Assembly: GCA_000004695.1 (NCBI GenBank) | Contig: CM000151.3 | Location: forward strand, 5,440,001-5,504,000 | Direction of reading: 5' to 3' | Length of the DNA stretch: 64,000 bases | Source: Dictyostelium discoideum | Taxonomy: Eukaryota | Shown here: piece after piece, positions 1,783-59,588 of the stretch | Layout of the letters: each line of letters starts with the position of its first letter | How positions within the stretch are numbered: position 1 is the first letter of the stretch | Position numbers and translations under genes: made by a program | Notes under the pieces: generated by a model | The model's database searches: none | Told to the model about the DNA's origin: nothing | What the model saw: the letters and a program-made list of their open reading frames with translations, nothing else

Positions 1783-3022
1783 AAAAATAGAAAATAGAAA
1801 AAAAAAAAAAAATATTAATTTTTATTTTTATTTTTTCATTTTTTTTTATAAAAAAAGTAAAATTGTTGAATGGTTAAAAGAAAATCAAGTTGTTGAATTA
1901 TTATATGGTGAAACAAGTCATATTCAATTATTACAAAAATGTACAGATATATTAAAATTCCTTGCAGAACAAAAAGCATTTGATAGAAAGTATTTAGACT
2001 TGATATGGTCAGCATCTGAAGGAAAACATGAAACAATAGAGAATGCAATCTATGATAGTATTGGAGCGATCGCTCCATTACTTCCACCTGAAGATATCGA
2101 TTATCTCTTTGACAAGGTTCAAATGATTCCCTACAATCATTACACTCAAATAACATTGAATTTAGTACGTTCATTAACTCAAAGACAACAACAAGCCACC
2201 AATTCCGATGGTATTACATCAAGAGGTTTGGATATATTTTGGAATTTAATGCAAGAAGATTGTGATGTTTGTAATGATCTCTCCAATGCATCATTGGTTT
2301 CACTTCAAGATTCTTTCCAATTCTATCCAAATCAAAGGGGACATTTTTTAACTAGAGCCTTGGACCATATAGATAAACATCGTTCAGTTGTAGTTTCACT
2401 TCGTTTAGTCTTTCATCTAATCAATAGTTTTGCAGAGAAAAAAAAAAAGAGAGATTTACATGGTGGCAATAATAATAATAACAACAATATGATGAACAAT
2501 GAAGCAGAGATGGCAAATGTAATTGAAAGTATTGATAGTCAACACCATTTAGTAGATTTATTATACAATCATTTAGTTTATTATACTACACAATGTAAAC
2601 AGATTATATCGAATGGTTACAATACTGATAGAAATGCAATGAATGTAGATGGTGGTGGTGGAGGAAGTGATAAACATCCATATAAACCACCGCAAGCTTG
2701 TGATGATTATACGTTTGCTGATAGAGTCAGTCATATGGAACAAATTCAAGATTATTTAAATTTTATTCGTTTCTTATATGACAAGTCAAGTTTATCCCTT
2801 ACTAAACAACATATCGATATTTGGTGGAATATCTTTGTTCTAGAACCAGTATCACACTCTGATAGAACTCACTTTTTCAATTGGGTCATTGACCATTTAA
2901 GTTTGGATGAACATCAAGTTTTGTATTTTATAAACAAATTCCAAACCTTAACTTTTACAGATTTAGATATTACCGGTTTCGAATTTTATAAATTTTGTTT
3001 TAATTTAATTAAATCTCATGAT

Positions 3023-3053
<31 letters not shown>

Positions 3054-3080
3054 TAGATAATAATAATAATAATAATAATA

Positions 3081-3111
<31 letters not shown>

Positions 3112-3805
3112 TTTAATTGGTTTAGATGATTTATGGAGAATTTTATTAGAAGCACAAAATGAACAAGTTGGAAGAGCAGCATGTTCATTTATAATTGAAC
3201 AATATAAAGATTATAAGAATCCAGAAGAATTTTTAAATACTTGTATGGCTAAATTATCAAAGGTACCAATTGGTAACGATTCAACAATGGATCCAATTAA
3301 TTATATGTTAGTAACACGTTGTCTTTCATTGGTAAAGAAATATTTAGAAGAATTTGGTTCAAGATCATCCGACTCATTTAAGAAACATTTTTCACCATTG
3401 ATCACAGTTAGATTTAGTAGTCAAAGAAATGTATTTAAATTTGACGTAAAGAGTAGTGAATCAATTGGTACCATAAAACAAATGCTTGCATATAATATTA
3501 AATCATCAGAACATTGTATTTGTTTAACTTTTCAAGGTAAAATGATGGTTGATGATTGTCAAACAATTGAAGATTTTCGTGTTGGAAATGGTGATACTAT
3601 CAGTTTCCAAGAGATTGGAGAACCAAGACAACCACTCACCTATGTTCAATCGGTTTCAATTAATTTTGATCAAAATAATTTCGCATTACTTTTCAGTTTG
3701 TTAAATATTCAATCGATTGCTCAAGATGTTTGGGATTTATTAATGTTATTACCAGTTAATAAACAAATATTTAGTGAAATAACAATCGATATTGTAAATA
3801 ATAAA

Positions 3806-3881
<76 letters not shown>

Positions 3882-6800
3882 GTAATGAAGATGGTCAACA
3901 ACAACAACAACAACAACAACAAAATATAAATTGGGATAATTTATTTGATCCAAAATCATCTTATCGTTTATTATATAGTTTATTAATTATTGAATCAATG
4001 GTAGTTAATGATAGTTATCATAGTAGTGATGGTAATGATAATAATTTAGATGGTCCAAATGAATGGAAACAAAAGTTTATTTCATCAGGTGGATTTGATC
4101 ATTTAATAAAGGTTTTAATGACAACAGATCTTCAAAATCCATCACGTGGTGGTAAGAGAAATACTTGCCTTTCAGTACTTTTAAGAATTATTTTTAGTAT
4201 TTTAGAGAGCAACCATTTCGATTTTAATGCTATCACAAGCCATCAAATTTCACCAGCCGACTTTTTAAATCGTTTAATCAGCTTAACATGGAATCAAGTA
4301 ATACCAACTACACATGAAGAGAATCTTTCAACTCATGAAACAGAGGATGCTATGGTTGTTTCTCATTTGATGCATTTAATTGTTGCCATCCTTTCGAATA
4401 ATGATCAATTGTTTAGTATATTCACAAAGAATAAAAACATTTTACAATGGATTTCACTCATAATCCTCGATAGTAAAGATACTTTTCTTCGTGATAAAGC
4501 TGCCAATGGTATTCGTGACATTTGTCATTACATTTCACCAGCTACAACAAAACATTACTTTTTGGACCAATTCCTTACCCTACTCTTTAAAAATGTCGCA
4601 GACGATCGTCAATCATCAACTTGTCAACAATTCTTTGATGTACTCAATCATTTATTAAATGAACAAGTTAGATCGTTAACTATTGATGCTTCAACTTCTT
4701 CTTTTACATCAGTTTATGCCGATCTCTTGTTAAAGTTGGTAGATATGATTAAAACTCAACCAATCATTGAATCAACAGCAATTTACCAACCAGATGTTTT
4801 ATTAATGGGATTATTGAATCTTGTAAAGATTTTAATTCAAGACAATAATGAATTCAAGCTATTGGCAGGTCAAAAGGGTGGTTTAGTTAAAGAGGTTTTC
4901 CATGAATGTCTTTTCAATATTGCAACTGCAGATAATCATGGTTCAACTTGTCCACCAAAATGTAAAACAAAGGAAAGTAGAGATATTTGTTTTGCTGTAC
5001 TCTTGGAGTTGGCCAAAGGTTGTGAACCAAATTTACGTGAAATTACTACACTCTTAATGGAACACCATAAACCAGAGGAAAAACGTTCACTTTGGAGTTA
5101 TTTCCCAGCTGGTAATGAAAAATCAATCACAGGTTATGTTGGTTTAAAGAATTTAGGTGCCACTTGTTATATCAATAGTTTAATGCAACAACTCTTTATG
5201 ATTCCAGGTTTCCGTTATAATATCATTCAATCCGAAGAGAAATATAACTCACCACAAGAACAACAAGAATCACTCCTCTATCAATTGAAAATCATATTTG
5301 CAAATCTTCAAGAGTCTGAAAAGAAATCACACGATCCAAAAGATTTCTGTTTAACTTATAAATATGATGGTCAACCAATCAATACATCGATTCAAATGGA
5401 TGCTGATGAATTCTTTAATATGCTTTTCGATAAACTAGAGAATACTCTAAAATCAACACCACAAGAAAAGTTATTAAAAGATTTTTTCGGTGGTAGTTCA
5501 GTAAATCAATTCATCTCTCAAGAGTGTAATCATGTCTCTGAACGTGAAGAACCATTCTATACCATTAGTGTCGAAGTAAAGAATAAAAAAGAGATTCAAG
5601 AATCATTACAATTGTTTGTAGAGAGTGAAACTTTAGATGGTGATAATAAATATTTTTGTAGTAGTTGTTCTCAAAAAGTTAAAGCATTAATGAGAAGATG
5701 TATCAAAGATTTACCAAATACTTTAATCATTCATAACAAGAGATTCGAGTTTGATTTAGATCTTATGAAGAGAACCAAATTAAATGATGCACTTCGTTTC
5801 CCAATGACAATCGATATGGAACCATACACTAAAGAATATCTCGAGAGAAAAGAAGCAATCGAAAAAGCCAAAGAAAAGGGTGAACCAATTCCAGAGGTTG
5901 CTCCATTACATCCACCATCCTATTATCAATATGAATTGGCAGGTATTTTAGTTCATACAGGTACAGCCGATTCTGGTCACTATTATAGTTATATTAAAGA
6001 GCGTGAACCAATTTGTGAAGGTCAACCACGTCGTTGGATTTTATTCAATGACCAAGCAACCGAGGTTTTCAATCCTGATGATATTTCAAAGGCATGTTTT
6101 GGTGGTTATGATGATCAAAGCAAAGGTAATTTCCGTGCTGGCCCAAGAGTTAACAATGCTTATATGTTATTCTATGAACGTTCTTATATTCAAGGTGAAA
6201 TGACAAAGAAATATGAAAACATTAAACAATCTGATGCTTCTAAATTAGTACCAAAAGAAATGTTTTCAAGTGTTTGGAAAAAGAATATGAAATTCTTAAA
6301 TGATAAGAATATTTTCGATACAAATTATTTCTCATTCTTATTAAATATTATAAAGTTAGATGAACCATCCGATTTAGATTCAAATAATCAAATGGATTTC
6401 ATTTCTTCTCAAGAATTATTAAAAGGTACTGATTCAATTGATGATCAAAAACTAAGTAGTCAAGATAATGAATTATCAAGTGGTGGTGGTGGCGGTGGTG
6501 CAACAAGTGAATTATCAGGTGGAGAAGTTGGTTTATATAATGGCGGTAGTGGTAGTGAATTCAATCAAACTATGCAATCAATTGAATTAGGTACTAGATT
6601 TTTAATTGAAACTTTATTCCACTCAAAAGATAGAAAAATGTTAGGTGATACTGTAAATTATTTAATCTCATTATATGAAAGAAATTTAGATGCTTGTTAT
6701 TGGTTATTAAATACTATCGTTGAACAACAAGGTTCTGATAATTCTTGGATTAGACAAGTATTTTTAACTTGTGTAACATTTGATCCAAGAGAAGCTTTAA

Positions 6801-9800
6801 TCAAATTATTATTATCAGTTGTTAAAACATTAATTCCAAGTGAAAAAGAAAACTATGGTTTAGATGAAGATAATGAAATGATGTCAGAAAATAGTGGAGC
6901 ATCTATTACTTCAATCGATGAGGAGGATGGAGATGATGAAGATGATGGTGGTGGTGGTGATGATGATTCAATGAATACTTCATCTGGTACAACAGGTAAA
7001 GGTAAACAAAAAGTATCATCCTCTTCTTCCTCTTCTTCTTCCTCTCAAATGAATTATGATCAAGATGAAATTTATCCAAGTTTTTCAAGCCTAAAGAAAC
7101 CAAAATCCATCATATTTAAGTTTATGGATGTATTTTTAGATTATATCAAGGAGGCACCAATGCATTGGAAACATTTTAGTTATTACTTTTTGTTTATCAA
7201 AGATTTTTCATTATTGGGTGAAGAGGAAAGAAAATATTTAATCAATAGAAATGTTATTGGCCGTTTAATTGATCTCTTTTTGGGTGATGAATCACAACTC
7301 TCCAAAACCATTCCACCACATAAGAAACCAAAGATGGGTGATAAATATAGTAGTCCACAATTCCTTAATATGATTGAAACCATCAATATCTTGGTTCATA
7401 GTTGTCATACTAGATATAGTAAGATGGAGTTTGACAAGAATGGTTCCTATCAAACAATGCCTGGTCAATTCACTTTGAATTTAGCTCCAATGCCAGAAAC
7501 CGATATGGAGTTATTATATGATCCAATATTTGTTGCCAAAGCAATTAAGGATACTCTATTAATCAAACCAATCACAGAGATAGTCTCTTATATTTGTTTC
7601 AATGATATCGATACTACCAATACTATCACTCAATATATTGAAGGATTCGATCAATCAAAGACATCCTTAGAGGTTTTACTTCCATTGATTAAATTAGATG
7701 ATCAATGTAGAGAAGAACGTGTTGACATTGTAATTCCACAATATATCAATATCGTTGAGGAAATCTTTAAAAATCGTAATAATTTGTCATTCTTAAAAAC
7801 TTTGGTAGAAGCTGCTCAACAATATTATTTCATTTCAGATTGGTTCAAGAAGAACTTTGATCGTTGGGTTACAAGTTGGCTCATTGGTAATGAACATTCA
7901 GAGGTTAGAAGTGATGCTTTCACATTACTCATTCATATCAATCAATTGAATCAAGAACAACCAGATCATAGTGCAATCATTGAAACCTTTTCATTCCTTT
8001 CTAGTGTTGATACCATTAAATATGCCAAAAAGATTTGTAAAAAAGATAAAGATCATCGTGGTGTTTTCAAATTTGAATATTATTTCAAACTACTTAGATT
8101 GTCTTTGGTCGTACCAGAATGTAAACAAATTTTCACACAAGTCGCTTCATTATTCTATGGTTTTATCACTGATATCATCTTTCAACAAAATGAAATCGAT
8201 AGAAATCGTCAAGAGCTTACTCACTTTTTGGTCGATGTACTTCGTGATCAACCTGAAAATATTGCTCTCTTACAAAAGGATCAATGTTCAACCAAACTCA
8301 TGGACTACTTTATTAGTATTTCATCCAAAGAGGATTTGAAACAATTCAATCAAAAATCTTTACCATCTTTCTATGAACTCTTATTCATTTTATCTTGTGA
8401 TAAACAATCATTCCTCGAATATGTCGTTGGTCATTCCAATTTCCAATGGGCTTGCAAATTTTTATTATGCGAATGTGGTGAATATCAAGATATTGCCGTC
8501 TTCCTTTTCAAATTATTAGAGTTGGTATCAAGAACACCAAAACATGCTCAATCTTTGATTAGTCACTTTTTAGGTTTTCCAAACTTTTTCTTTTATCCAG
8601 CTCATTCATTGAAAGTAATGGATATTCTCACCTTTTCAAAGAAAGAAGCCATTTGTTTTGTTAATTCTCAAGGTATCAATGTATTTAGTAAATTCTTGGG
8701 TTCAAGTAAAGACTCTCAAGAGAATGTACGTCAATATCCAAAAGCAATCGATATCATTTTTAAGGTTTTATCATTAATTCACTCACCACAGTCACCACAA
8801 GATTCTTCTTCTCCAAAATCAACAAATGTAATCGTAATCGATGAAGATATCGCCTCCTCCTCTTCTTCCTCTTCATCAAATATTCAAAATCCAACCAATG
8901 TAAATGTAAATGAATTAACTCAAGAGGTAAAAACATTATCATCTGTATTATACAATTTAATGGATAGTGGTGAAATAGTTTGTCAAAAAGCTCAAAAACT
9001 TTTAAATTTTATTGCAGTTGAATCACCTGATATTACAATTTTAACATTTAGTGATTTCATTACAAAATGGATAAATAAAAAGAATTCAATGATAAATAAT
9101 AATATTAATTTAATTAATAATAATAATAACAATAATAACAATATGATGAATTCAATTAATTTGGTTGATAACGATCCAAAACAACCATCAATACCACAAT
9201 TTTCACATGGTAACCCAAGTCAACAATATCCATCACCATTTGCTCAACAACCACCACAACAACAACAACAACATTCAAGATTAAATCAAAATCAACAATT
9301 ATTAAATCAATTTTCATTTAGTGAAACATTTTTCAATTCATTAATTGAAATTGTTTTAATTTCAATGCAAAGTGCAACCTCTCAAAACTCAAATCCATCA
9401 TTGGAATCAAAAGCATCAATTTCCCTTGCAAAATTAGTTAAAGAAGTTTTAAATATTAACATGGAGATGGGTTCACGTATTCTTAGTCGTGTAATTGATA
9501 GTTTAAAGGTTGAAGATAGAAATTCAGTGATCTCTCATTGTATTGAACATGGTTTTATTGGTACTTGTGAAACTTCTCCAACAACTCCAACCTCACTTAA
9601 CTCATTGTATGATTTAGTTAAATCTTTCCTTCAAGACAAAGCAAATGAAGAAACTGTTAATAACTTTTGCACCGATCTTGAAGATAAAGTAACCACATCC
9701 ATCGTTTCCATTAAATCATTAGAGAATTCCAATGACAACCAAATCGATACTCATTTATTATCCTTAATAAATGCACTCCATCAAATTCAATTGTTTAATA

Positions 9801-9952
9801 ATTGTTGTCCAACTGGTAAATCTCATATATCCCTCTCGAATATTATCAACTCTTTAAATGAATTTGCAAACAAAGAGTGCTGTAACATTCAATCTGAAAA
9901 TGCCACATTATTTTTAACTTCTTTCAAACCAATTAGACCATCAAATAATTAA
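439..9952 (+). CDS. Very large USP-family ubiquitin carboxyl-terminal hydrolase (about 2,990 aa), with a USP9X/USP24/USP34-like architecture: long N-terminal helical region, UBL domain, central USP catalytic domain and a long C-terminal extension. Proposed exons: 439..617, 865..1192, 1369..1742, 1858..9952.
   Basis: Cys box GLKNLGATCYINSLMQQLF and His box YELAGILVHTGTADSGHYYSYIK are present in the 2000..9952 ORF. A ubiquitin-like segment (FDVKSSESIGTIKQMLAY...DTISFQ) precedes the catalytic domain. Three 5' introns have GTAAGT or GTATGT donors and AG acceptors, and they preserve the frame (phases 2, 0, 2). Intron 3 uses cag|GTAAGT, with the G shared with the CAG. Poly-N and poly-Q runs occur in-frame. 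Confidence 0.8.
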
Positions 9953-14846: not shown

Positions 14847-16469
14847 TTAAAATTTTAATAAATTTAAACCTTGTTTAAAAACTATATCAATTGGAATACC
14901 AGAATAATCAATAATAATATCTTCTATATTTAATGTACCCATTTCATTAATCCAACTTTGAGCAGCTTTTTTATTACCATTACCTTGAATTACTAAAATA
15001 TGATTTACTAATTTTGGAATTGCTAATTTCATTTTATTGAAATTTACAGAGAAATAATTTGTAGTTGAATTCTTTTCAAAAGCACCATATTTATGAAGGA
15101 AATTAAAATTTAAAGTATTTGCTTTTGCATGTGCATTTGATGAACCAAATCTAACTGAACGGAAAATACCAGCAATATAAGAAACATAATTGTCCATTAA
15201 ATCTTTATTTGAAATTAAATTATGCTCAGCTAGATAAGTTATAAAATAAATACCCAAGATATCAGCTTTAGCCTCTTCAAGTGGTGAATAATATACTTCA
15301 AGTGCTTGATGAACACTTGTGCCACTACCATCTACTAAAAATTTAACACCTAAACCATGAGAAATTTCATGAAACATAACATTCTCAAAAAAACCATTTT
15401 CAAAAGTAACATGTTTCAATTGAGTTGGATCAATTACTCTTTTAGCAATTGGCATTAGAATTTCATCAAATTTAGCCTTCATTAAATTTTTAATTTGAAT
15501 TTTACGAGTACCCTTATCAAGTTGAACTTTTGGATCATTTGGTAAATTAATTGCAATATTTTTTGGACCAGCGTTACCAGAACCATAACTTGCAATTAAA
15601 TCATAAACATACATATCACCTTTTGAACTACCACTTTTCTCACTTTTATATTTTTTATCTTCAACTGGTAAATTCTCTTGTAACTCTGGTAACATTGAAT
15701 TATATTTTTTAATTTTTTCACTCCATACTAAATCTTTAATTAATAATTGACTTTGAAAGGATGCTTTTAAACCTTTGAAAGTATCATCATAGGTTTCGAT
15801 TGGACCAATAACAATTTCAATTGGATTATTTGTCATTTCCATCCATGTTATATCACTATCATAATATTGATCATTTGATAAAGCAATTGATCTTTTTTTT
15901 AAATATTCTTTAAATCCTTTATCACTTGAATAATTTGATGCTTTCATTAATAAATTTGATATTTTCATTACTTCAGTTTTATATTCTTGATTATACCAAA
16001 TACATTTTAAATTTTTACTTTGACCATTATCTCTTCTTAAAACAGTATATGAACTTTTTTTTAAACTATTATTAAAATTATCAAATTCATCTTCTGTAAT
16101 ATCCAATGGATAAAAATTTAAAGTTGGTGGTTTATTACCAATACCATCAATAAATGAATTATCGTTATTTAATCTATCCCATGGTCCATAATTTATTGAA
16201 CAATATTCTCTAATATCTTTATCTTTATAATTTACTAAAAATTGTTGTTTGCTTTTACCCAATGTTTGTTTCCAAAATATATCATCAACAATTTTTGATG
16301 CATTAAATAATATCTCTATCATTAATTTATCATTTTTTGATAAATAACTGATATCTTTCTCTAATGATATTACAGAATATTGATTTATTAATTTTTTAAA
16401 ATCAAACTTTTCTTTTGCTAAAATTAAATTTAAAGATAATAATATTATAAAAAATATTATTATTTTCAT
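14847..16469 (-). CDS. Secreted zinc metallopeptidase, dipeptidyl-peptidase III (M49)-like.
   Basis: It has an N-terminal signal peptide (MKIIIFFIILLSLNLILA). The zinc-binding motif is FHEISHGLGVKF (HEXXH; compare M49 HELLGHGSGKLF). The second motif is PLEEAKADILGIYF (compare M49 EECRAESVGLYL). It is a single exon of 540 codons. Confidence 0.68.
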   Translation of the reverse strand: MKIIIFFIILLSLNLILAKEKFDFKKLINQYSVISLEKDISYLSKNDKLMIEILFNASKIVDDIFWKQTLGKSKQQFLVNYKDKDIREYCSINYGPWDRLNNDNSFIDGIGNKPPTLNFYPLDITEDEFDNFNNSLKKSSYTVLRRDNGQSKNLKCIWYNQEYKTEVMKISNLLMKASNYSSDKGFKEYLKKRSIALSNDQYYDSDITWMEMTNNPIEIVIGPIETYDDTFKGLKASFQSQLLIKDLVWSEKIKKYNSMLPELQENLPVEDKKYKSEKSGSSKGDMYVYDLIASYGSGNAGPKNIAINLPNDPKVQLDKGTRKIQIKNLMKAKFDEILMPIAKRVIDPTQLKHVTFENGFFENVMFHEISHGLGVKFLVDGSGTSVHQALEVYYSPLEEAKADILGIYFITYLAEHNLISNKDLMDNYVSYIAGIFRSVRFGSSNAHAKANTLNFNFLHKYGAFEKNSTTNYFSVNFNKMKLAIPKLVNHILVIQGNGNKKAAQSWINEMGTLNIEDIIIDYSGIPIDIVFKQGLNLLKF

Positions 16470-19787: not shown

Positions 19788-23748
<3,961 letters not shown>

Positions 23749-29149: not shown

Positions 29150-29502
29150 TAAAAATTAAAAATAAAAAAACAAAAATAAAAATAAAAATAAAAAACTAAA
29201 AAAAAAGTAATTAAAATGAAAAAAAAAAAGATATTTTTTAAAAAAAAAAAAAATCTAAATTTATTCAATTTTAATAGTATTATGAGTTTTTAATTCATGT
29301 TGGTAAAAATTAAACAAAGAAATATTTGAATCTAAAATATTTGTTAAAGAATCTAAACTTTTTGTATGATTAATTAAAAGACTCCATCTTTCTCTTTTTT
29401 GGAAATAATTTGCATATCCTATGAAAAATAATCCTATTCTTGGTATTAAAACTAATTTTTTAATCTTTTTTTTTTTTTTTTAGAAAATAAAAATGTTAAG
29501 TA

Positions 29503-29941
29503 TTAAAGTAAGAAGGAAAATTTTTTTTTTTTTTTTTTTTTTTTTAATTTTAATATACATACAGTTCTTTGATCAGATTCACACCAATAACTCTTTGAAT
29601 TATCACCTTTTGTTCTAACTAATGACACTATTAAATAACTAAAATGATAATATTGAGCCATTTCAATTGGTAAAACATTGATAAAGGGTAAATCTAAAAT
29701 ATTCTTTTTGATTAAATTTCTTTGAGCTTCAAATGGAGAAACGATTACAATCTCTAATGGGTCCAATTTTAAAGTTTTTAATAAAAATCTAACTAATTTA
29801 CAAACAAACTCGCATTCTTTAATATTTGTAAACTTTTGAATCATTTCTTTGTCATCTAAATTTTCATTATCCATAATTTCTAAACTTTCAATTGATTCTA
29901 AATTAAAAAATGAAAATATTGGTTTTTCCTTTTTGTGAAAG

Positions 29942-29987
<46 letters not shown>

Positions 29988-32900
29988 TAGAATTATATAA
30001 AGAAAATAAAAAAAATAAAAAAAAAATAATACTTACTTTATAAAAATTAAAAAATGATAAATCTTGAAAATTAATTTTATCTAAAGATAATAAATTTGAA
30101 AAGATTGATGGTATATAATTTGAAGTTAAAGTAAATGGTCTAATATAATTTGATAATCTTTTGGAGAGATTAATTTTCATTAAATTTCTAAACTTTTTTG
30201 ATTTAACACTGATTGGACCAACTGAAATATCACTAACACTATCACCAAAAAGTATTACATGATCAGCTAAATTTAAAGCACATAAAGTTTTTGGTTCTAC
30301 CTCTTGATGTGAATTATCAACGATTACCCATTTAATATCTAAATTTCTAATTAAATCATTTGTTGCATCGGTTGATGTACAAAAAACTATATTTGAATTA
30401 TTAATATTATTTAAATCAATAATTGTTGAACAATTTGAAAATTGAAATATATTTGATTGATTATTATTATTATTATTATTATTATTATTTTTATTATTTA
30501 ATTTATAAAATTGATTTTTAAAAAATCTAATCATTTTAAAACTATTACTAAAATCCAAATCTAAAAATGTTTTACATGATGAATCCTTTTGAAATATAAT
30601 AAAAAAAATTATTTGTTAAGATTAATAATTATTTCTTTTTTAAAAATAAAAAAAAAAAAAAAATACATACTAAACTAAAATCATTTGGACCACAAATTAA
30701 AATTCTATTTGTTAATTTTAAATTTTGAATTGAAAATTTTGAAATTAAAAATGATAAAGTTGTTTTACCAGAACCAGGTTGACCTTCAATGATGGTTACT
30801 TTATTATATAATGAACTATGAACTGCCATTTCTTGTGAAGAATTTAAAGAGAAACCAGAGTTTGGAAGTTTAGATGGTGAAAATGGTATTAACTCGTTTC
30901 CAACACCAGTTGAAATGATAGATTGACAAGCTGATGGGATTTTTAATGGGGATTTTATATTTGAAAATAATGATACCCCAACCATTAAATCATGATTGAA
31001 TGAATCACGATGAGTAATTTCGACGAAAAAGGGTGTTCTCATCATTATTTTCTCGATTTTTGCTGGAAATTTAATCTTTAACCATTTTTCATCTTTAATA
31101 CCCACCTTTGAAATTATAGAATGAGTTGAAAATGGTGGGTTTCTATCATTACCCAAATAAATACAACAAATAAAGTCACCTTTTGAAATCTTTTCTAAAT
31201 TTAAATTTAATGGTAGTTCAATTGCTCCAACATATTTTCTCTTTTTCTTACTCCAAGAAATCAAAACTGATGATAAAAAAATTGAATTTTCATTTTGTTG
31301 TTGTTGATGATGGATACTATTACCAACATTCTTATAAACTGAATTTAAATCAATCATTGTACTCCAAAATTCAATATAATGATTAAAATTTTCAAATTTT
31401 GATCCAATTTTATAATCTTGAAAAATTTTATTTAAAAATATATCTTGATTCTAATAATAAAAAAGAAAAAAATAAAAAAGTTAATAAATTATAATTTTTT
31501 TTTTTTTATAGATTAAAAAAAAAAAACTTACAAATTTATGAAAACAATTAAAATTTGGTGTTGATTTAATTGAATTTAAAAATGATAATTCTAATTGATT
31601 TGATTGATTATTAAAAAATAATAAAACTTGAATTGAATGTAAAAGTTTTACAAAAATTTTATCATCATTTAAATTTGATAAATTTAATAATAAATGATTC
31701 TTTGGTAATTTAATTTCAACTGAATTATCAAATTGAACAGTTGGTTTAAAGTTTGAAATTGAAATTGTAAATAATTTATTATATTCTTTACACCAAACTT
31801 GTAAATAATCATTTGAAATACCAATTACTAAAACATTTACAACTATTGATGATTTTAATTGAATCAATGATTTAGTTGAAATCTTTTGAAACTTTTTTAA
31901 TGCTATAACTGATTTTTGAAATTTTTCATTTAAATGTAAAATTAAATTTTCTAAATTTAAAAATTCAATTGGTAAACATTTATTATTATTATTAATATTA
32001 CTATTATTATTATTATTATTATTATTAATTGTACTTGATAAATTATTATTATTATTTGGGTTATTATTATTTGGGCTATTATTATTTGGATTATTATTAT
32101 TTGGATTATTTTTATTAAATCTTAAATTTAAAATTCTTTGATTATAGATATCTGAATATCTTTTTAAAGGTTCAGTAAATTCACTATAGTAAGGAAAGTG
32201 TTGATATTTCTCTTTTTTAATTTTAAATGATTCCAAATTTCCTGAAACTTGATTTAAAATATAATTTAAAAAAAGTTCTTCATTAGTATTACAATTAATA
32301 CTAAGATTTTGATTTGATTTGAATGATTGAACCAATTTAAATAGATCAGTTTCTTTAAATAAATTTGATTGAACTAAACTATTTGAAACTTTATAAATTA
32401 AACCTTCGATTCCCCATTCAGCCAATGTACAAGTAACAATGAAATTTGCCAACATTAATACCTCTTGAATTAAATTTGATACTGATTCATTTGGTAATTG
32501 AGGTTGTTTAACTTTAATTGGAACATTTAAGATTGTATTAAATTCAAAAGATACAAATTGATTATTTGAATTTATAATTAAATTTTTTGAAAGGACATGA
32601 TTCTTGAATACCAATAAACTAGTTTCAATATCAGATTGTTGAAATTTACTATCTTGGTCAATTTCAAGTTTATCATCGATTGGTAAACCTTTAAAAATAT
32701 TTTGAACTTGTGAATAAGAAAGATTAGTCGTTGATTTAATAATTGACTTATGGATACGTCTTGAAACTGATTCACCAATATGATTTAAACCACCAAAACT
32801 CCATTCAACTGTAAAACATTTTCTTTCTTTACCAGGTGACAATGATAAGTTTTGAGTAATAAATTCTTGATCAATGATATCAACTCTATCAATACCACCA

Positions 32901-33595
32901 AAATCAATTGAAATACCATTCATACAAGCAATTTTATCCAATGTTGATCCAATTTCAATAAAACTTGTGCAATCAAGAAAATGAACAAAAATTGTAACTT
33001 TACCATCCAAACTCTTTTTAAATGAAAATGCATATGAAATATTATTATTATTATCCTGTTCAATTGTAAAACATAATAAATCTCTTAAATCTTCATAATC
33101 TTCATTATTATCAAAAAAAACAATTGATTTATTTGATAATGAATTTATAATTGTATTGGTTGCTGTATTAGTTGAAGTAGTGGTTGTTGTAGTTGTAGTA
33201 GTAGTAGTGGTGGTGGTGGTGGTGTTTGTTGTGGTAGCTGTTGATAAATTTGAAATTGGCGATAAATTATTTTCAATTTTTATAATTGAAAGTTCTTTTA
33301 AAAACTCATTCGAAATTGCCCAATGATTATTAATTGTACCAATTGGAAATAAAGTTGATGATGACCAAATTGATTCTAATTTAATTTCATAAATGATATT
33401 ACCATTTAACAATGGTAATTTTAAAAGCTGATTATTATCAAATATTAAAACCATTATACATGCGAGTTTACAGTTTGTTGGTTCAAAGAAAAGGAATTGA
33501 TCTTTTCTTTTTAAAAATTTACAACAATAAATTTCTTTGTGTTGACTTTTAATAATTGATATAACTTTACATTCAATTAATTTATTATTATTAGT

Positions 33596-33666
<71 letters not shown>

Positions 33667-35025
33667 GATTATTATTATTATCATTAATTTGTTGATTATT
33701 ATTAATTATTTGATCATTTTGATTTAAATTTTGAGTTCTTTTAATGGTTTCTTTAAAAACTTTATCAAAAATAACTTCATCATGTTGTTGTTGTTGATTA
33801 TTTGTTAAAATTTCAACTGCAACTATATCACCATGAAAGGAACGATTTCTATTAAAATAACCAGTTATATTAAAAATTTTATCTTGAAAATATAAATAAT
33901 TTGGTTTAATGGTTGCATTATTTGGATTATTTTTTTTTATATTAATTTCCCCAACTATAATATTTTTCTTCTATTTAAAAAAAAAAAAATAAAAATAAAG
34001 TCAATAAAAATTTAAAAATTAAAATTTTTAAAAAATAATAAAAAGGTGATAATTACAATTAATGAATTATTAATTTCAAATTCAGAATAATGTTCGAGAT
34101 AATAATTATTATTATTTGAAATTGTTAAAGGTAATAGTGAATTTGAAATTGATACTTGTGAAAGAGATGAAGAATAAGATGATGATGAAGAACAAGTTGA
34201 AGAAGGTGGTGATAACTGTTGATGGCAATTTCCATTGTTACCAAAGAATTTATTATTTTGATTACTATTGAGCGAAGGTGATGATAATCCAAAATTTGGT
34301 TTCTTTGATTTGTTTCTTTCAACCTTTCTATGATCTAATTCAGAGTGTGCAAATGCACACCATCTACCTTTTTTACATGCTTGATTGTTTACATAATCTT
34401 TACAAAATTTAGTTTTATATACCAGTGGATGATACATTACTTCAACATCATTATGAGAGAATCCACACTTTTTTTAAAAAATAAAAAAAAAATAAATAAA
34501 AAAAAAGATTAAAATTTTATTCTTCATATGTTATTTATATTATATAAAAAAATATATAAATTATAATTACATTTTCATTATTGCAAAGAGTTTGACAAAG
34601 ATTATTTGAATAAAGTAGTTTTCCATCGCTATCATATGGTGGTCTTCTACGTTCATCTCTTTTGTGATAAAAGAAACTAATTGGGAAAAAAAAAAAAAAA
34701 AAAAAAAAAAAGTTTAAGCAAAATTCCAAAAATTAAAAAAAAAATAATAAAAAAAAATAAAAAAATATAAGTTTTAATTACCAATCTCTATCTTTTGAGC
34801 ATTTAATAATCCCCAATCTACATTCTTGGGTTTTATAACTATTGATATACTTTGAGTGACATTCTTCAGGTGACATCAATTTAAATGGTTTATTATTGTT
34901 ATTATTTTTATTATTATTATAATTATTAGTGGTAGTATTATTATTATTGTTGTTATTGTCGTTGTTATTGTTGATATTATTTGTATTATTATTAATATTT
35001 GGGATATTAGTGGTAATTTTAAATT

Positions 35026-35029
<4 letters not shown>
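29503..35029 (-). CDS. Proposed single seven-exon gene encoding a HELZ2-like RNA-decay protein of about 1,650 aa: three CCCH zinc fingers, cold-shock-like and RNB (RNase II/Dis3-like) domains, then a UPF1-like SF1 helicase. Exons (minus strand): 35029..34782, 34676..34571, 34467..34057, 33970..31532, 31450..30671, 30585..30037, 29928..29503.
   Basis: CCCH fingers: YKTQECRLGIIKCSKDRD|CFFYH spanning intron 1, a noncanonical LCQTLCNNEN|CGFSH, and the canonical YKTKFCKDYVNNQACKKGRWCAFAH. A CSD-like block is GYFNRNRSFHGDIVAVEI. RNB motifs are NLIQEVLMLANFIVTCTLAE and EPLKRYSDIYNQRIL. Helicase motifs are LNSSQEMAVHSSLYNKVTIIEGQPGSGKTT (motif I), VIVDNSHQEVEPKTL (motif II-like) and VIVSPFEAQRN (motif V). 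All junctions use GTAATT, GTAAGT or GTATGT donors and AG acceptors with matching phases. The proposed intron 31451..31531 (donor TTT|GTAAGT, acceptor ttattattag|AAT, phase 0) removes the RNB ORF's TAA and a second in-frame TAG. The helicase frame is open from that acceptor with no upstream ATG. Confidence 0.6.
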
Positions 35030-35783: not shown

Positions 35784-36722
35784 ATGCGTGTATTTTTATT
35801 TAAAATTGCAAGTAAACAAAGATGGACACTTTATATTGAAAAATCTGAATTCTTCTCAAAGAAAGTTGATATCGAACCTACAATTGTAACAACATCAAGT
35901 AATAATAATAATATAACATTACCAACTCAATCTAAAGGAGTTTTAATATTAAATAAATTAAAGAATATAGCAATTGAATCAAAGAATGAAATTGATAACG
36001 CTCAAGATGGTGTTGGATTAAAAGGGAAATTAAAATCATTATTATCATATTTAGAATCTAAAATCCATCCAGAAGAAGCAGTATTACAACAATTTTCAAA
36101 AATTAATGATAATAATTTAATTAAAAAACATAATCATCATAACCATCATAATCATATTCATCATAATAATAATAATAATAATAATCAAAATGAAACTGTA
36201 AAACACCAATTTGAACATTTTAATGAACAAAGAGATAAAGCTAGTTTTACAATATATTATCCATCAAATATTGGATATAGACGTGCTAATAGATTCTCAC
36301 AAGTATTAATGAGACAAAAGATACGATTCCATCAAAAATGGATGATAATCAATAGTTTATTAATTCCAATTACATTTGCTGCCACAATTTTACCAGGCCC
36401 AAACATTTTCTTAGCCTATAATCTTTATAGATTATATGGTCATTTCCAAGCATTAAAAGGTTGTACCAATCTATCAAGATACACTAAATCACATGGTAGA
36501 TTATTATTTAAACCAAGTTTAGAAATGTTTGAATGTTTAGATGGTGAATTACTACAACAACAACAACAATTTAAACAACAACAACAACAACAACAACAAC
36601 AGCAAGAAGAAGAAGAACAATCAATCGATAATCCAAACTCATATGAAAAATTATCCACAAGATTAAGAATACCAGGTTTATTTGATTATGTAAAAAGAAT
36701 TGAAACTATTGAAAACAAATAA
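35784..36722 (+). CDS. Conserved hypothetical protein of 312 aa with a pair of adjacent hydrophobic helices (WMIINSLLIPITFAATILPGPNIFLAYNLYRLY), possibly an organellar membrane protein. It has His-rich, Asn-rich and poly-Q tracts.
   Basis: A single uninterrupted ORF with a basic N-terminal region, the motif PGPN...YN.YR...H..ALKG and the C-terminal motif RIPGLFDYVKRIE. No family could be assigned confidently from memory. Confidence 0.6.
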   Translation: MRVFLFKIASKQRWTLYIEKSEFFSKKVDIEPTIVTTSSNNNNITLPTQSKGVLILNKLKNIAIESKNEIDNAQDGVGLKGKLKSLLSYLESKIHPEEAVLQQFSKINDNNLIKKHNHHNHHNHIHHNNNNNNNQNETVKHQFEHFNEQRDKASFTIYYPSNIGYRRANRFSQVLMRQKIRFHQKWMIINSLLIPITFAATILPGPNIFLAYNLYRLYGHFQALKGCTNLSRYTKSHGRLLFKPSLEMFECLDGELLQQQQQFKQQQQQQQQQQEEEEQSIDNPNSYEKLSTRLRIPGLFDYVKRIETIENK

Positions 36723-43234: not shown

Positions 43235-48130
<4,896 letters not shown>

Positions 48131-53094: not shown

Positions 53095-54702
53095 ATGAGT
53101 GATAGTAGCGAATTTTTAGAAAAACATCAACAAGATATATTAAATCAATTAAATAATCTCAAAGAGAAAATCGAAAATTTAGAAAATAAAATGGAAACCA
53201 TTGAAGATACTCAAGTTCAACAACCAACCGAAGAAATCACACAAATTAAAGATGATATTATTGTAGTCGATGATGCTCAAAAAACAATTGAACAAGAAGA
53301 AATTAAAAAAGAAGAACCTGAAAATGATGAATCATCAGAAGAAATTACTCAACAACAACAACAAGTAGAAGAACAAGAAGAAGTTAAGCAAGAAGAGCCA
53401 GTTGTTGAACAACAACAAAAAGAAGATGAAATTAAACAAGAAGAACCAATTGTTGAAGAACCAATTGTTGAGGAACCAATTGTTGAGCAACAACAAGAAG
53501 AGGAAGTTAAACAAGAAGAACCAATTGTTGAAGAACCAATCGTTGAGGAACCAATTGTTGAACAACAAGTAGAAGAAATTAAACAAGACGAACCAATTGT
53601 TAAAGAACCAATTGTTGAACAACAAGAAGAAAAAGAAGAAGAAGAAGTAAAACAAACACAAGAAGAAACTACAACTGTTACAGAATCAGTTGTGGTCACT
53701 GAAACTGTTATTACTGAAGAAGAGAAAAATGAAACTACTATTACTACTGCTACTACCACTACCACCACTACCGAACAACCAACTATTGAACAACAACAAC
53801 AAGAAGAGGAAGAATCAAGACCAGTTATTGAATCTGAACCAATTGTTGTTGTTGAAGCAACTGAACAACCAACAGTTGAAGAAGAATCCGATGAAGAAGA
53901 TAAAAAAGAAACTAATGAAAATGATAAATCATCATCCAATGATAATAATAATAATAATAACGATAAACAAGAAGAACAAAAAGAACAAACAAATGGTAAA
54001 AATGAAAAAGATGAAGAAGAAGAAAAAGAAAAAGATAATAAAAAAGATAAAGAAGAAGAAGAAGTTGAAAAAGAGGATGAAAATATATTATCACAAGCAG
54101 AATTAGCAAACTTTTATAAACTTGAAGGTAATGAATACTTTAAACATAATATTTACTTTGATGCAATCGAAAGTTATTCAAAAGCCATTTCAATTAAACC
54201 ATCACATCTCTTGTATAGTAATAGATCAATTTCATATTATAAATTTGGATTATTTGCTGAATCACTTCAAGATGCATTGGAATCAATTAAATTGGAAGCT
54301 AATTGGGTTAAAGGTTATCATAGAGCTGGTCAAGCTTTAGAAAAATTAAATCAAAAAGATGAAGCCATCAAATATTATGAAAAAGGTCTTTTAATTGAAC
54401 CAGATCATCAACCAATGAGAGATGCTTTAGATAGTATTTTAAATGTTGGTAAAGAAGATCAAAAAGGTGAAAATACTTCCTCTGATAGTGAATCAGATAG
54501 TGAATCAGATAGTGAAGAAGAAAGTGAATCTGATTCAGAATCTGATTCAGACTCTGACGACTCTGACGATGATGATGATAACACTTCAAATCAAAATAAA
54601 TCTATCGTACCATATGGACCTGTTGCTAAAGTGGCAATTGCAACTTCAATTGTTGGTGCAATTGCTCTTGGTTTCTATCTTATAACTAAATTAAAAAAAT
54701 AA
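53095..54702 (+). CDS. Acidic TPR-repeat protein with a C-terminal transmembrane tail anchor, 535 aa.
   Basis: It has an N-terminal coiled region. Glu/Pro/Ile/Val repeats (EEPIVEEPIVEQQ, about 8 copies) are encoded by DNA repeats of 30 to 60 bp. Three TPR units lie in AELANFYKLEGNEYFKHNIYFDAIESYSKAISIKPSHLLYSNRSISYYKFGLFAESLQDALESIKLEANWVKGYHRAGQALEKLNQKDEAIKYYEKGLLIEPDH. These are followed by the poly-acidic run SDSESDSESD...DDDDD and a C-terminal TM helix VAKVAIATSIVGAIALGFYLITKLKK. Confidence 0.78.
   Translation: MSDSSEFLEKHQQDILNQLNNLKEKIENLENKMETIEDTQVQQPTEEITQIKDDIIVVDDAQKTIEQEEIKKEEPENDESSEEITQQQQQVEEQEEVKQEEPVVEQQQKEDEIKQEEPIVEEPIVEEPIVEQQQEEEVKQEEPIVEEPIVEEPIVEQQVEEIKQDEPIVKEPIVEQQEEKEEEEVKQTQEETTTVTESVVVTETVITEEEKNETTITTATTTTTTTEQPTIEQQQQEEEESRPVIESEPIVVVEATEQPTVEEESDEEDKKETNENDKSSSNDNNNNNNDKQEEQKEQTNGKNEKDEEEEKEKDNKKDKEEEEVEKEDENILSQAELANFYKLEGNEYFKHNIYFDAIESYSKAISIKPSHLLYSNRSISYYKFGLFAESLQDALESIKLEANWVKGYHRAGQALEKLNQKDEAIKYYEKGLLIEPDHQPMRDALDSILNVGKEDQKGENTSSDSESDSESDSEEESESDSESDSDSDDSDDDDDNTSNQNKSIVPYGPVAKVAIATSIVGAIALGFYLITKLKK

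Positions 54703-55059: not shown

Positions 55060-59588
<4,529 letters not shown>

Follow-up and report, generated by a model that had tools for sequence, protein, structure and literature searches.

A dictyostelid protein joining CCCH zinc fingers to RNB and UPF1-like modules with altered catalytic motifs

RNB pseudonucleases such as Ssd1 and helicase modules that no longer hydrolyze ATP are both known already, each separately. In Ssd1, RNA is bound by the dead module itself (PMC8934651), and in the Ssd1 lineage, after the loss of catalysis, the RNB domain came under less constraint than any other part (PMC8097288). The human protein HELZ2 is, by comparison, an active RNase and helicase; it naturally carries Asn at the second catalytic Asp of its RNB domain and keeps its RNase activity, while changing the third Asp to Asn abolishes it (PMC10516660). 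Here we describe a gene on the minus strand of a 64,000-nucleotide stretch of Dictyostelium discoideum AX4 chromosome 2 (GenBank assembly GCA_000004695.1, contig CM000151.3, positions 5,440,001 to 5,504,000; about 20% G+C), which we refer to as the window. Its 1700-amino-acid product, to which all residue numbers refer, consists of three Unkempt-type CCCH fingers, a Dis3L2-like CSD1-CSD2-RNB-S1 module and a UPF1-like helicase of superfamily 1B (SF1B), in that order. We consider it reasonably probable that both enzyme-derived modules are catalytically inactive and that the protein acts by binding RNA. Among described proteins, we found none that fuses a nuclease of the Dis3L2 type to a helicase of the UPF1 type with both inactivated and the fusion conserved throughout a eukaryotic clade.

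The RNB part resembles the fungal Ssd1/Sts5 proteins (PDB 7am1) in that a CSD1-CSD2-RNB-S1 module has lost DxxxxxDxDD and kept its fold, with the RNB domain less conserved than the other RNA-binding parts. By analogy, the expected role would be that of an mRNA-binding regulator rather than a nuclease. However, the losses are independent (Amoebozoa versus Fungi), and Ssd1 has neither CCCH fingers nor a helicase. Ssd1 is not among the sequence matches at E<=0.01, which places the protein outside the Ssd1 family. The likeness to Ssd1-type inactive RNB proteins proposed in an earlier note on this DNA, made by eye from the sequence, therefore holds for the inactive RNB domain, as convergence and not as orthology.

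HELZ2 also has N-terminal fingers that include CCCH fingers, and an RNB domain followed by a UPF1-like helicase in one polypeptide; even its motif Ia, CGPSNKSVD, is close to the CGPNDFSVD of the dictyostelid family. It differs in having two helicase cores flanking the RNB domain and alternating C2H2/CCCH fingers, whereas the protein described here has one helicase, an Unkempt-type cluster and clear cold-shock domains (CSDs). The best non-dictyostelid matches to both the RNB and the helicase parts are HELZ2-like proteins from molluscs, a hemichordate, an annelid, fish, amphioxus and the protist Gefionella, so that the order of RNB domain and then helicase is common to them and the dictyostelid family. 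In the searches with the RNB and CSD profiles, Dis3L2 equals or exceeds HELZ2 in score, and the ancestry of the RNB part is therefore not separated between the two. UPF1-like SF1B helicases (IGHMBP2, SEN1/SETX, ZNFX1, Aquarius) align over the whole core, with motifs I, Ia and IV recognizable. UPF1 proper, however, has an N-terminal, UPF2-binding CH domain before the helicase, where this protein has its RNB/S1 module; the Pfam scan of the protein gave no match to a CH domain. The three fingers share sequence and spacing with fingers 4-6 of Unkempt, but Unkempt has two three-finger clusters and a RING domain, whereas here there is a single cluster, no RING match in the Pfam scan of the protein, and an unrelated remainder.

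Active-site residues of the RNB and helicase modules

The fold of the RNB module is readily recognized. Pfam RNB (PF00773) covers amino acids 548-870 (E=7.7e-36, 124.4 bits against a cut-off of 29.3, profile positions 2-321 of 326), and the nearest sequence to amino acids 256-1068 is S. pombe Dis3L2 (E=1.7e-18). An AlphaFold2 (AF2) model of the latter region, built on a 47-row alignment, has a predicted local distance difference test (pLDDT) score of 77.6 and a predicted template modeling (pTM) score of 0.79. Its superposition on Dis3L2 from human, mouse and S. pombe covers about 740 columns, S1 included, with template modeling (TM) scores of 0.69-0.72 and E down to 2e-40. Dis3L2 is the top structural match, and yeast Ssd1 (7am1) ranks 29th, after Dis3L2, Rrp44 and RNase R. 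The family CSD profile also finds Dis3L2-like proteins as its best matches. No PIN domain was matched in the Pfam scan of the protein, and the CSD1-CSD2-RNB-S1 architecture without an N-terminal PIN domain is that of the Dis3L2 subfamily. Dis3L2, an active 3'-5' exoribonuclease with the same domain order, is thus the best relative of the module in both sequence and structure. The protein described here differs from it by replacements at the catalytic Asp positions, at a conserved Tyr and at several motif IV residues, and by the fused CCCH fingers and helicase.

The earlier note had singled out five strings, all of which exist on the minus strand within 29503..33970: VHFLD (584-588), NQRIL (865-869), VIVDNSHQ (1415-1422), VSLVRTKG (1612-1619) and GQPGSGKTT (1291-1299). 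As a motif standard for the RNB domain we used D-x5-D-x-D-D (D201, D207, D209 and D210 of E. coli RNase II), and D-x5-D-x-DDA is present across about 80 other RNB proteins. In alignments to S. pombe Dis3L2, human DIS3 and these roughly 80 proteins, motif I of the D. discoideum protein, TIEQDNNNNISYAF, stands opposite TIDPxxAxDLDDAV, and Dis3L2 TIDPETARDLDDAVSC pairs with TIEQDNNNNISYAFSF. Because of this alignment to Dis3L2, the four catalytic Asp positions correspond to E559, N565, S567 and Y568, which agrees with the claim that no DxDDA equivalent is present. Compared with HELZ2, the protein has Asn at the second position as well, but in addition Ser at the third and Tyr at the fourth.

The same losses are seen across the family. 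Our RNB comparison was a 47-row alignment of five family members and 42 other proteins, together with the wider set of about 80 aligned with MAFFT. The first, third and fourth Asp (D1, D3 and D4) are each present in 42/42 of the other RNB proteins, whereas the family has E/S/S/H/V, S/S/Q/P/S and Y/N/T/V/N, respectively, and every family member aligned has lost either these three or all four. A Tyr found in 41/42 of the others, which we take to be the 3'-end clamp Tyr, is D611 here and D/N/D/D/D in the family. Counting as conserved any column shared by at least 85% of the 42 other proteins, there are 69, of which 34 are kept in D. discoideum and 13 in all five family members; His and Arg positions of motif IV are among those lost.

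Motif IV is altered in a similar manner. SPIRRYPDIIVHRLL pairs with EPLKRYSDIYNQRIL, which reads EFTEPLKRY..QR; His is replaced by E852, Ser by E855, Arg by K858 and His by Q866, and R859 and R867 are kept. At its end, VHRLL pairs with NQRIL, i.e., the Arg of the HRQL motif is kept where it had been placed in the note, and His is changed to Gln. The RNB HIAD motif is retained as HFLD (585-588). Taken together, motif I, motif IV and the conserved Tyr all depart from the motifs of active exoribonucleases. The loops of the CSD and RNB domains also contain poly-Q (CAA), poly-T (ACx) and Asn/Pro-rich tracts (33590..33690, 33160..33260 and 32000..32115, minus strand), which are absent from the orthologs and are low-complexity expansions typical of Dictyostelium.

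The helicase module also keeps a recognizable fold. The C-terminal 632 amino acids match the whole UPF1 core, with E=1.5e-11 for the single sequence and E=3.4e-42 for the family profile against human UPF1 (2gjk, positions 16-612). Pfam AAA_11 is found with E=4.7e-16 (59.8 bits against a cut-off of 27). An AF2 model based on six sequences, used for fold assignment only, has UPF1 structures as its top PDB matches (E=6.6e-28). Conservation was assessed in a 73-row alignment of six family members and 67 other UPF1-like helicases.

Walker B Glu activates the attacking water in P-loop ATPases, and Glu-to-Gln variants bind ATP and do not hydrolyze it; the UPF1 DE636AA mutant is a known example for the role of Walker B. 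In motif II, VIVDNSHQEVEP, this Glu is present in 66/67 of the other helicases (DE in 64/67) and is Asn in 6/6 family members. The Asp-Asn pair read by eye was thus confirmed against UPF1 and the 67 UPF1-like helicases. Four residues on, E1423 is invariant in the family, where other helicases carry Ala, Cys or Ser. In motif III, ILFGDSVSDISVGP, the Gln present in 67/67 other helicases is S/I/T/S/P/A in the family, and the adjacent Leu has become Asp in all six members. In the motif V region, IEMAQYYHFSYLIVSLVRT, the Gly (66/67 in others) is Tyr in all six members, and the Glu (66/67) is H/H/R/K/Q/H.

Motif VI was the point at which the earlier placement failed. VSLVRTKG, which had been taken for motif VI, belongs opposite UPF1 ILSCVRANE, in the strand that follows motif V, and the true motif VI, DQRTIKKLVLIPRIGLFFIG, reaches into the last exon and is degenerate too. 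There, UPF1 RRLNVALTRARYGVIIVG pairs with RTIKKLVLIPRIGLFFIG (amino acids 1632-1649). The Arg of T-R-A, present in 65/67 of the other helicases, is I/S/gap/S/S/T in the family and Ile1640 in D. discoideum. In IGHMBP2, the motif VI Arg touches the gamma-phosphate and has been equated with the PcrA arginine finger (PMC3505976). We also considered R1642, just before the motif VI Gly, as the arginine finger on the basis of UPF1 numbering. This candidate was rejected, as the conserved column is that of the lost T-R-A Arg, and R1642 stays as a caveat.

Other helicase elements are kept. The P-loop, which had been described as intact, is confirmed by the alignment: G1291, G1294 and the Lys are invariant in 6/6, and G1296 is Cys in Heterostelium album. 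The Q-motif Gln and the Walker B Asp, conserved in other helicases, are invariant in the six family members. Motif Ia reads CAPSNxAVD in others and CGPNxxS[VL]D in the family, and motif IV reads PYxxQ in others and SP[YF]xxQ[RA] in the family. We take these two motifs, together with a conserved Arg and Thr in RecA1, to be the RNA-contact elements of UPF1-like helicases, and all are retained. Measured against the UPF1-like motifs, motif I and the Q motif are thus present, and motifs II, III, V and VI deviate. The possibility that the Asp residues and the motif II Glu were present after all, and had been misplaced by eye, was checked with profile and multiple alignments; the residues are truly absent.

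All six species also have a near-invariant Lys run, SWSKKK(K/R)KY[VI]G (31226..31258, minus strand, amino acids 1133-1143), where UPF1 has DLGLNKKRIAYF. From the UPF1 alignment, this run presumably lies in the helicase 1B barrel and may form a patch for RNA contact or a nuclear localization signal. Outside the dictyostelids, two HELZ2-like proteins (P0030, 1691 amino acids, from the assembly of a public sequencing run; P0120, 3172 amino acids) have lost the third and fourth RNB Asp (DL-QV-A and DL-QH-A). P0030 also has D-S for D-E in helicase motif II, with motifs III, V and VI kept, and may represent a parallel, partial double inactivation in another lineage.

Gene model and dictyostelid family

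The gene was modeled by joining open reading frames (ORFs) through canonical GT..AG introns, and just one combination leaves one frame open. The result is a single minus-strand gene of eight exons at 29261..35029 (Table 1). Four long minus-strand ORFs lie within 29503..33970, the span of the earlier note; this span contains the motif strings discussed above, but four of the exons, including the last (29261..29464), and the CCCH fingers (34345..34822) fall outside it. Introns are 81-108 nt long with 6-10% G+C, compared with 19-29% in exons. Exon 4 alone has 813 open codons, for which the chance probability is about 1e-35 in DNA of such composition. All seven exon junctions are collinear with five full-length orthologs, with unbroken alignment blocks, and exon 6 opens with the codon for the invariant motif Ia Asp of the helicase.

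What public protein sets contain for this D. discoideum gene appears to be a truncated product, i.e., its last 355 amino acids only. This C-terminal part is identical to XP_643696.1 / DDB_G0275427 / Q553Q0, and introns 6 and 7 are confirmed by a 100% match to XP_643696.1. DDB_G0275427 (annotated as a 'hypothetical protein' of 355 amino acids, window positions 29261..30534, minus strand) begins at Met1346, inside exon 6, and was not found in a literature search. For the zinc fingers, the RNB domain and the first half of the helicase, no D. discoideum protein was found in two very large collections. A search with a cleaned RNB core gave no match, which we use solely as a sign that the RNB part is unannotated in that collection. 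A word-index search with a 1350-amino-acid query returned only distant Dis3-like proteins and missed the identical fragment, because low-complexity words overwhelmed it. Relative to the collections searched, the complete model of the D. discoideum protein thus seems to be new.

When 1.84 billion representative proteins were searched exhaustively with HMMER, five full-length relatives of 1543-1864 amino acids were identified, one per species (E 1e-131 to 1e-74), in Polysphondylium violaceum, Acytostelium subglobosum, Heterostelium album, Cavenderia fasciculata and Tieghemostelium lacteum. They are named just 'hypothetical protein' or 'C3H1-type domain-containing protein'. Together with D. discoideum, we take these species to represent all major dictyostelid groups. 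All five orthologs have the same order of three CCCH fingers, CSD, RNB and helicase, and the same losses. N1324, N1419, E1423, D1447 and Y1604 are fixed in 6/6 species and rare or absent in other helicases. Because the degenerate pattern recurs in six orthologs and is essentially absent from homologs outside the family, it lies far beyond chance. The H. album ortholog (P0010, PPL_00423) is peculiar in that the whole RNB motif IV segment (aligned to amino acids 840-960) is missing from the gene model and the P-loop reads GPPGSCKT; these oddities reflect either a gene-model error or further decay of dead centers.

The CCCH cluster is the best-conserved part of the family, with 64% mean pairwise identity and 49 of 110 columns invariant, compared with 34-39% for the helicase parts, 28% for RNB and 21% for the S1-like region. 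This gradient, with a weakly conserved RNB domain, is similar to that of the Ssd1 lineage. The study of that lineage also mentions an 'amoebozoan RNII-like' branch, which it left unexplored (PMC8097288). The three fingers claimed in the earlier note are present, and all of them align with fingers 4-6 of mouse Unkempt (5elk; phmmer E=8.5e-10, query 15-115 against chain 10-118). Pfam zf-CCCH_UNK scores 17.8 bits, under its cut-off of 31.1. One ortholog per species with the same architecture, the fixed replacements, the open exon 4 and the identity gradient together argue for selection rather than decay of the locus.

Table 1. Features of the gene and neighboring genes, in window coordinates
Feature	Position	Strand	Amino acids	Remarks
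Exon 1	34782..35029	-		
Exon 2	34571..34676	-		
Exon 3	34057..34467	-		
Exon 4	31532..33970	-		
Exon 5	30671..31450	-		
Exon 6	30037..30585	-		
Exon 7	29563..29928	-		
Exon 8	29261..29464	-		
Three-CCCH cluster	34327..34864	-	56-165	Split by introns 1 and 2
Zinc finger 1	34664..34822	-		
Zinc finger 2	34453..34597	-		
Zinc finger 3	34345..34404	-		
CSD1-CSD2 region	33101..33970	-	256-545	Carries poly-Q and poly-T inserts
RNB domain	32096..33100	-	546-880	Catalytically degenerate
RNB motif I	33026..33067	-	557-570	TIEQDNNNNISYAF
RNB motif IV	32129..32182	-	852-869	EFTEPLKRYSDIYNQRIL; consensus HFTSPIRRYPDLxVHRxL
S1-like beta-barrel	31532..31960	-	926-1068	Beta-strand block in AF2 model
UPF1-like SF1B helicase core	29264..31450	-	1069-1700	Stalk/1B barrel and both RecA domains; introns 5, 6 and 7 inside
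Walker A/motif I	30758..30784	-	1291-1299	GQPGSGKTT; intact
Helicase motif II	30292..30327	-	1415-1426	VIVDNSHQEVEP; D1418-N1419 in place of D-E
Helicase motif III	30214..30255	-	1439-1452	ILFGDSVSDISVGP; Gln and Leu of GDxxQL are S1446 and D1447
Helicase motif V region	29611..29667	-	1599-1617	IEMAQYYHFSYLIVSLVRT; FQGxE is AQYYH; includes VSLVRTKG
Helicase motif VI	29417..29574	-	1630-1649	DQRTIKKLVLIPRIGLFFIG; spans intron 7 (29465..29562) into last exon
Neighboring gene	2000..9952			
Neighboring gene	14847..16469			
Neighboring gene	20147..23392			
Neighboring gene	35784..36722			
Neighboring gene	53095..54702			

Probable RNA binding without catalysis and its alternatives

The pseudo-enzyme interpretation of the earlier note is strengthened by these results, as five orthologs have the same losses, helicase motifs III, V and VI are lost in addition to motif II, and the RNB Tyr and motif IV residues are replaced. 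The retained Q motif, GxxGxGK[TS] and Walker B Asp fit the suggestion of a helicase that binds ATP and is impaired in hydrolysis, and the helicase domain probably still binds nucleotide. The further suggestion of a clamp is drawn from the sequence, and we hold a specific ATP-locked clamp with less confidence than an inactive RNA binder as such.

Each Unkempt cluster reads a short single-stranded motif, and the CCCH cluster would likewise pick the target by reading such a motif. The RNB module would then bind RNA without cleaving it, as Ssd1 does, while the UPF1-like domain would grip RNA and nucleotide with hydrolysis uncoupled from translocation, giving a static or nucleotide-gated hold in a nucleotide-bound state from which hydrolysis would offer no exit. 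The net role would be post-transcriptional control, in which particular mRNAs are stably bound, repressed, stored or scaffolded rather than decayed or unwound.

Several points weigh against this interpretation. Human HELZ2 is active despite Asn at the second Asp, so the motif rules are not absolute. The family-fixed E1423, located four residues past the lost Walker B Glu, could in principle serve as a relocated catalytic base. In addition, Pfam AAA_12 (RecA2) was undetected in the single-sequence scan, and the AF2 model of the helicase is of moderate confidence (pLDDT 60.7). Finally, the single-transcript model in D. discoideum rests on collinearity with the orthologs, as public sets hold the last 355 amino acids only.

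A bolder version, which we regard as possible though rather unlikely, is that the nucleotide pocket has been rebuilt under selection into a nucleotide-gated switch, with N1419, E1423, D1447 and Y1604 fixed and the P-loop, Q motif and Walker B Asp kept. The switch would either lock onto RNAs chosen by the fingers or hydrolyze ATP slowly via the relocated Glu. A decay machine of the HELZ2/Dis3L2 type would thereby have become a sequence-specific, ATP-sensing RNA clamp, persisting in all dictyostelid lineages sampled.

An unlikely alternative to RNA binding by all modules is that the protein works mainly through protein-protein contacts, as a scaffold or adaptor. In this case, the dead RNB and helicase modules would recruit active decay or translation factors, like the catalytically inert subunits of other complexes, and just the CCCH cluster would contact RNA. 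This would fit the much higher conservation of the cluster (64% versus 28-39%), the weakly conserved RNB and S1 regions, and family-specific fixed surface features such as the SWSKKK(K/R)KYVG run. However, the helicase elements that we presume to contact RNA are retained (CGPNxxS[VL]D, SP[YF]xxQ[RA] and the RecA1 Arg and Thr). The model also predicts that the complete CSD-CSD-RNB-S1 funnel fold is retained, and Ssd1 provides a precedent for a dead module that is the RNA-binding unit (PMC8934651).

It is also quite improbable, in our view, that the protein is still an enzyme relying on non-canonical residues, i.e., hydrolyzing ATP via Glu1423 (DNxxQE) and/or cleaving RNA via E559, D561, D611, E852 and E855 of the RNB domain. 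N1419, E1423, D1447 and Y1604 are fixed in six species and not drifting, conservation extends to the P-loop, the Q motif and the Walker B Asp, and the replacements in the RNB pocket are mostly acidic (Tyr by Asp/Asn, His by Glu/Asp, Ser by Glu/Asp). HELZ2, moreover, tolerates one Asp-to-Asn change. Yet the losses in motif III (Gln), motif V (Gly and Glu) and motif VI (Arg) come together, a combination that removes gamma-phosphate sensing and RecA1-RecA2 coupling and not just the catalytic base. The residues at D1, D3 and D4 vary by species and are mostly non-acidic, with no conserved substitute metal site visible, and in HELZ2 the change of D3 to Asn alone is sufficient to kill activity.

The last alternative, that the D. 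discoideum locus comprises two or more genes, or a decaying pseudogene beside a short helicase-fragment gene whose motifs reflect loss of function, could explain why the C-terminal 355 amino acids alone are seen as a protein in two very large collections and why the RNB-core search found nothing, but it is highly improbable, and its pseudogene form was rejected, since all 1700 codons are open over seven canonical, short, AT-rich introns with an 813-codon exon among them, the junctions are collinear with full-length orthologs in five species, including at the motif Ia Asp, and the same 'degenerate' residues are conserved in those orthologs.

Neighborhood and significance

The neighbors of the gene look like housekeeping genes, encoding a USP9X-type deubiquitinase, an M49 peptidase, a GRAM/TBC RabGAP, a Mit_KHE1 protein and a TPR protein, and no RNA-metabolism cluster was seen around the gene among its neighbors in the window. 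Two minus-strand ORFs at 43964..48130 (1388 amino acids) and 55515..59588 (1357 amino acids) have no Pfam match at E<=1e-4. These two regions are also odd in composition for the window, with G+C up to 0.34 and AT skew of -0.28 to -0.58.

Judged from its sequence, the protein would join an independent RNB pseudonuclease to a pseudo-helicase whose conserved nucleotide pocket has been remodeled, and would not be a categorically new system. If this is true, it adds an independent, non-fungal case of an RNA-decay enzyme turned RNA-binding regulator, and the family provides a natural experiment on a UPF1-like core that binds but does not hydrolyze ATP. The genetic tractability of D. discoideum allows a direct test of the prediction.

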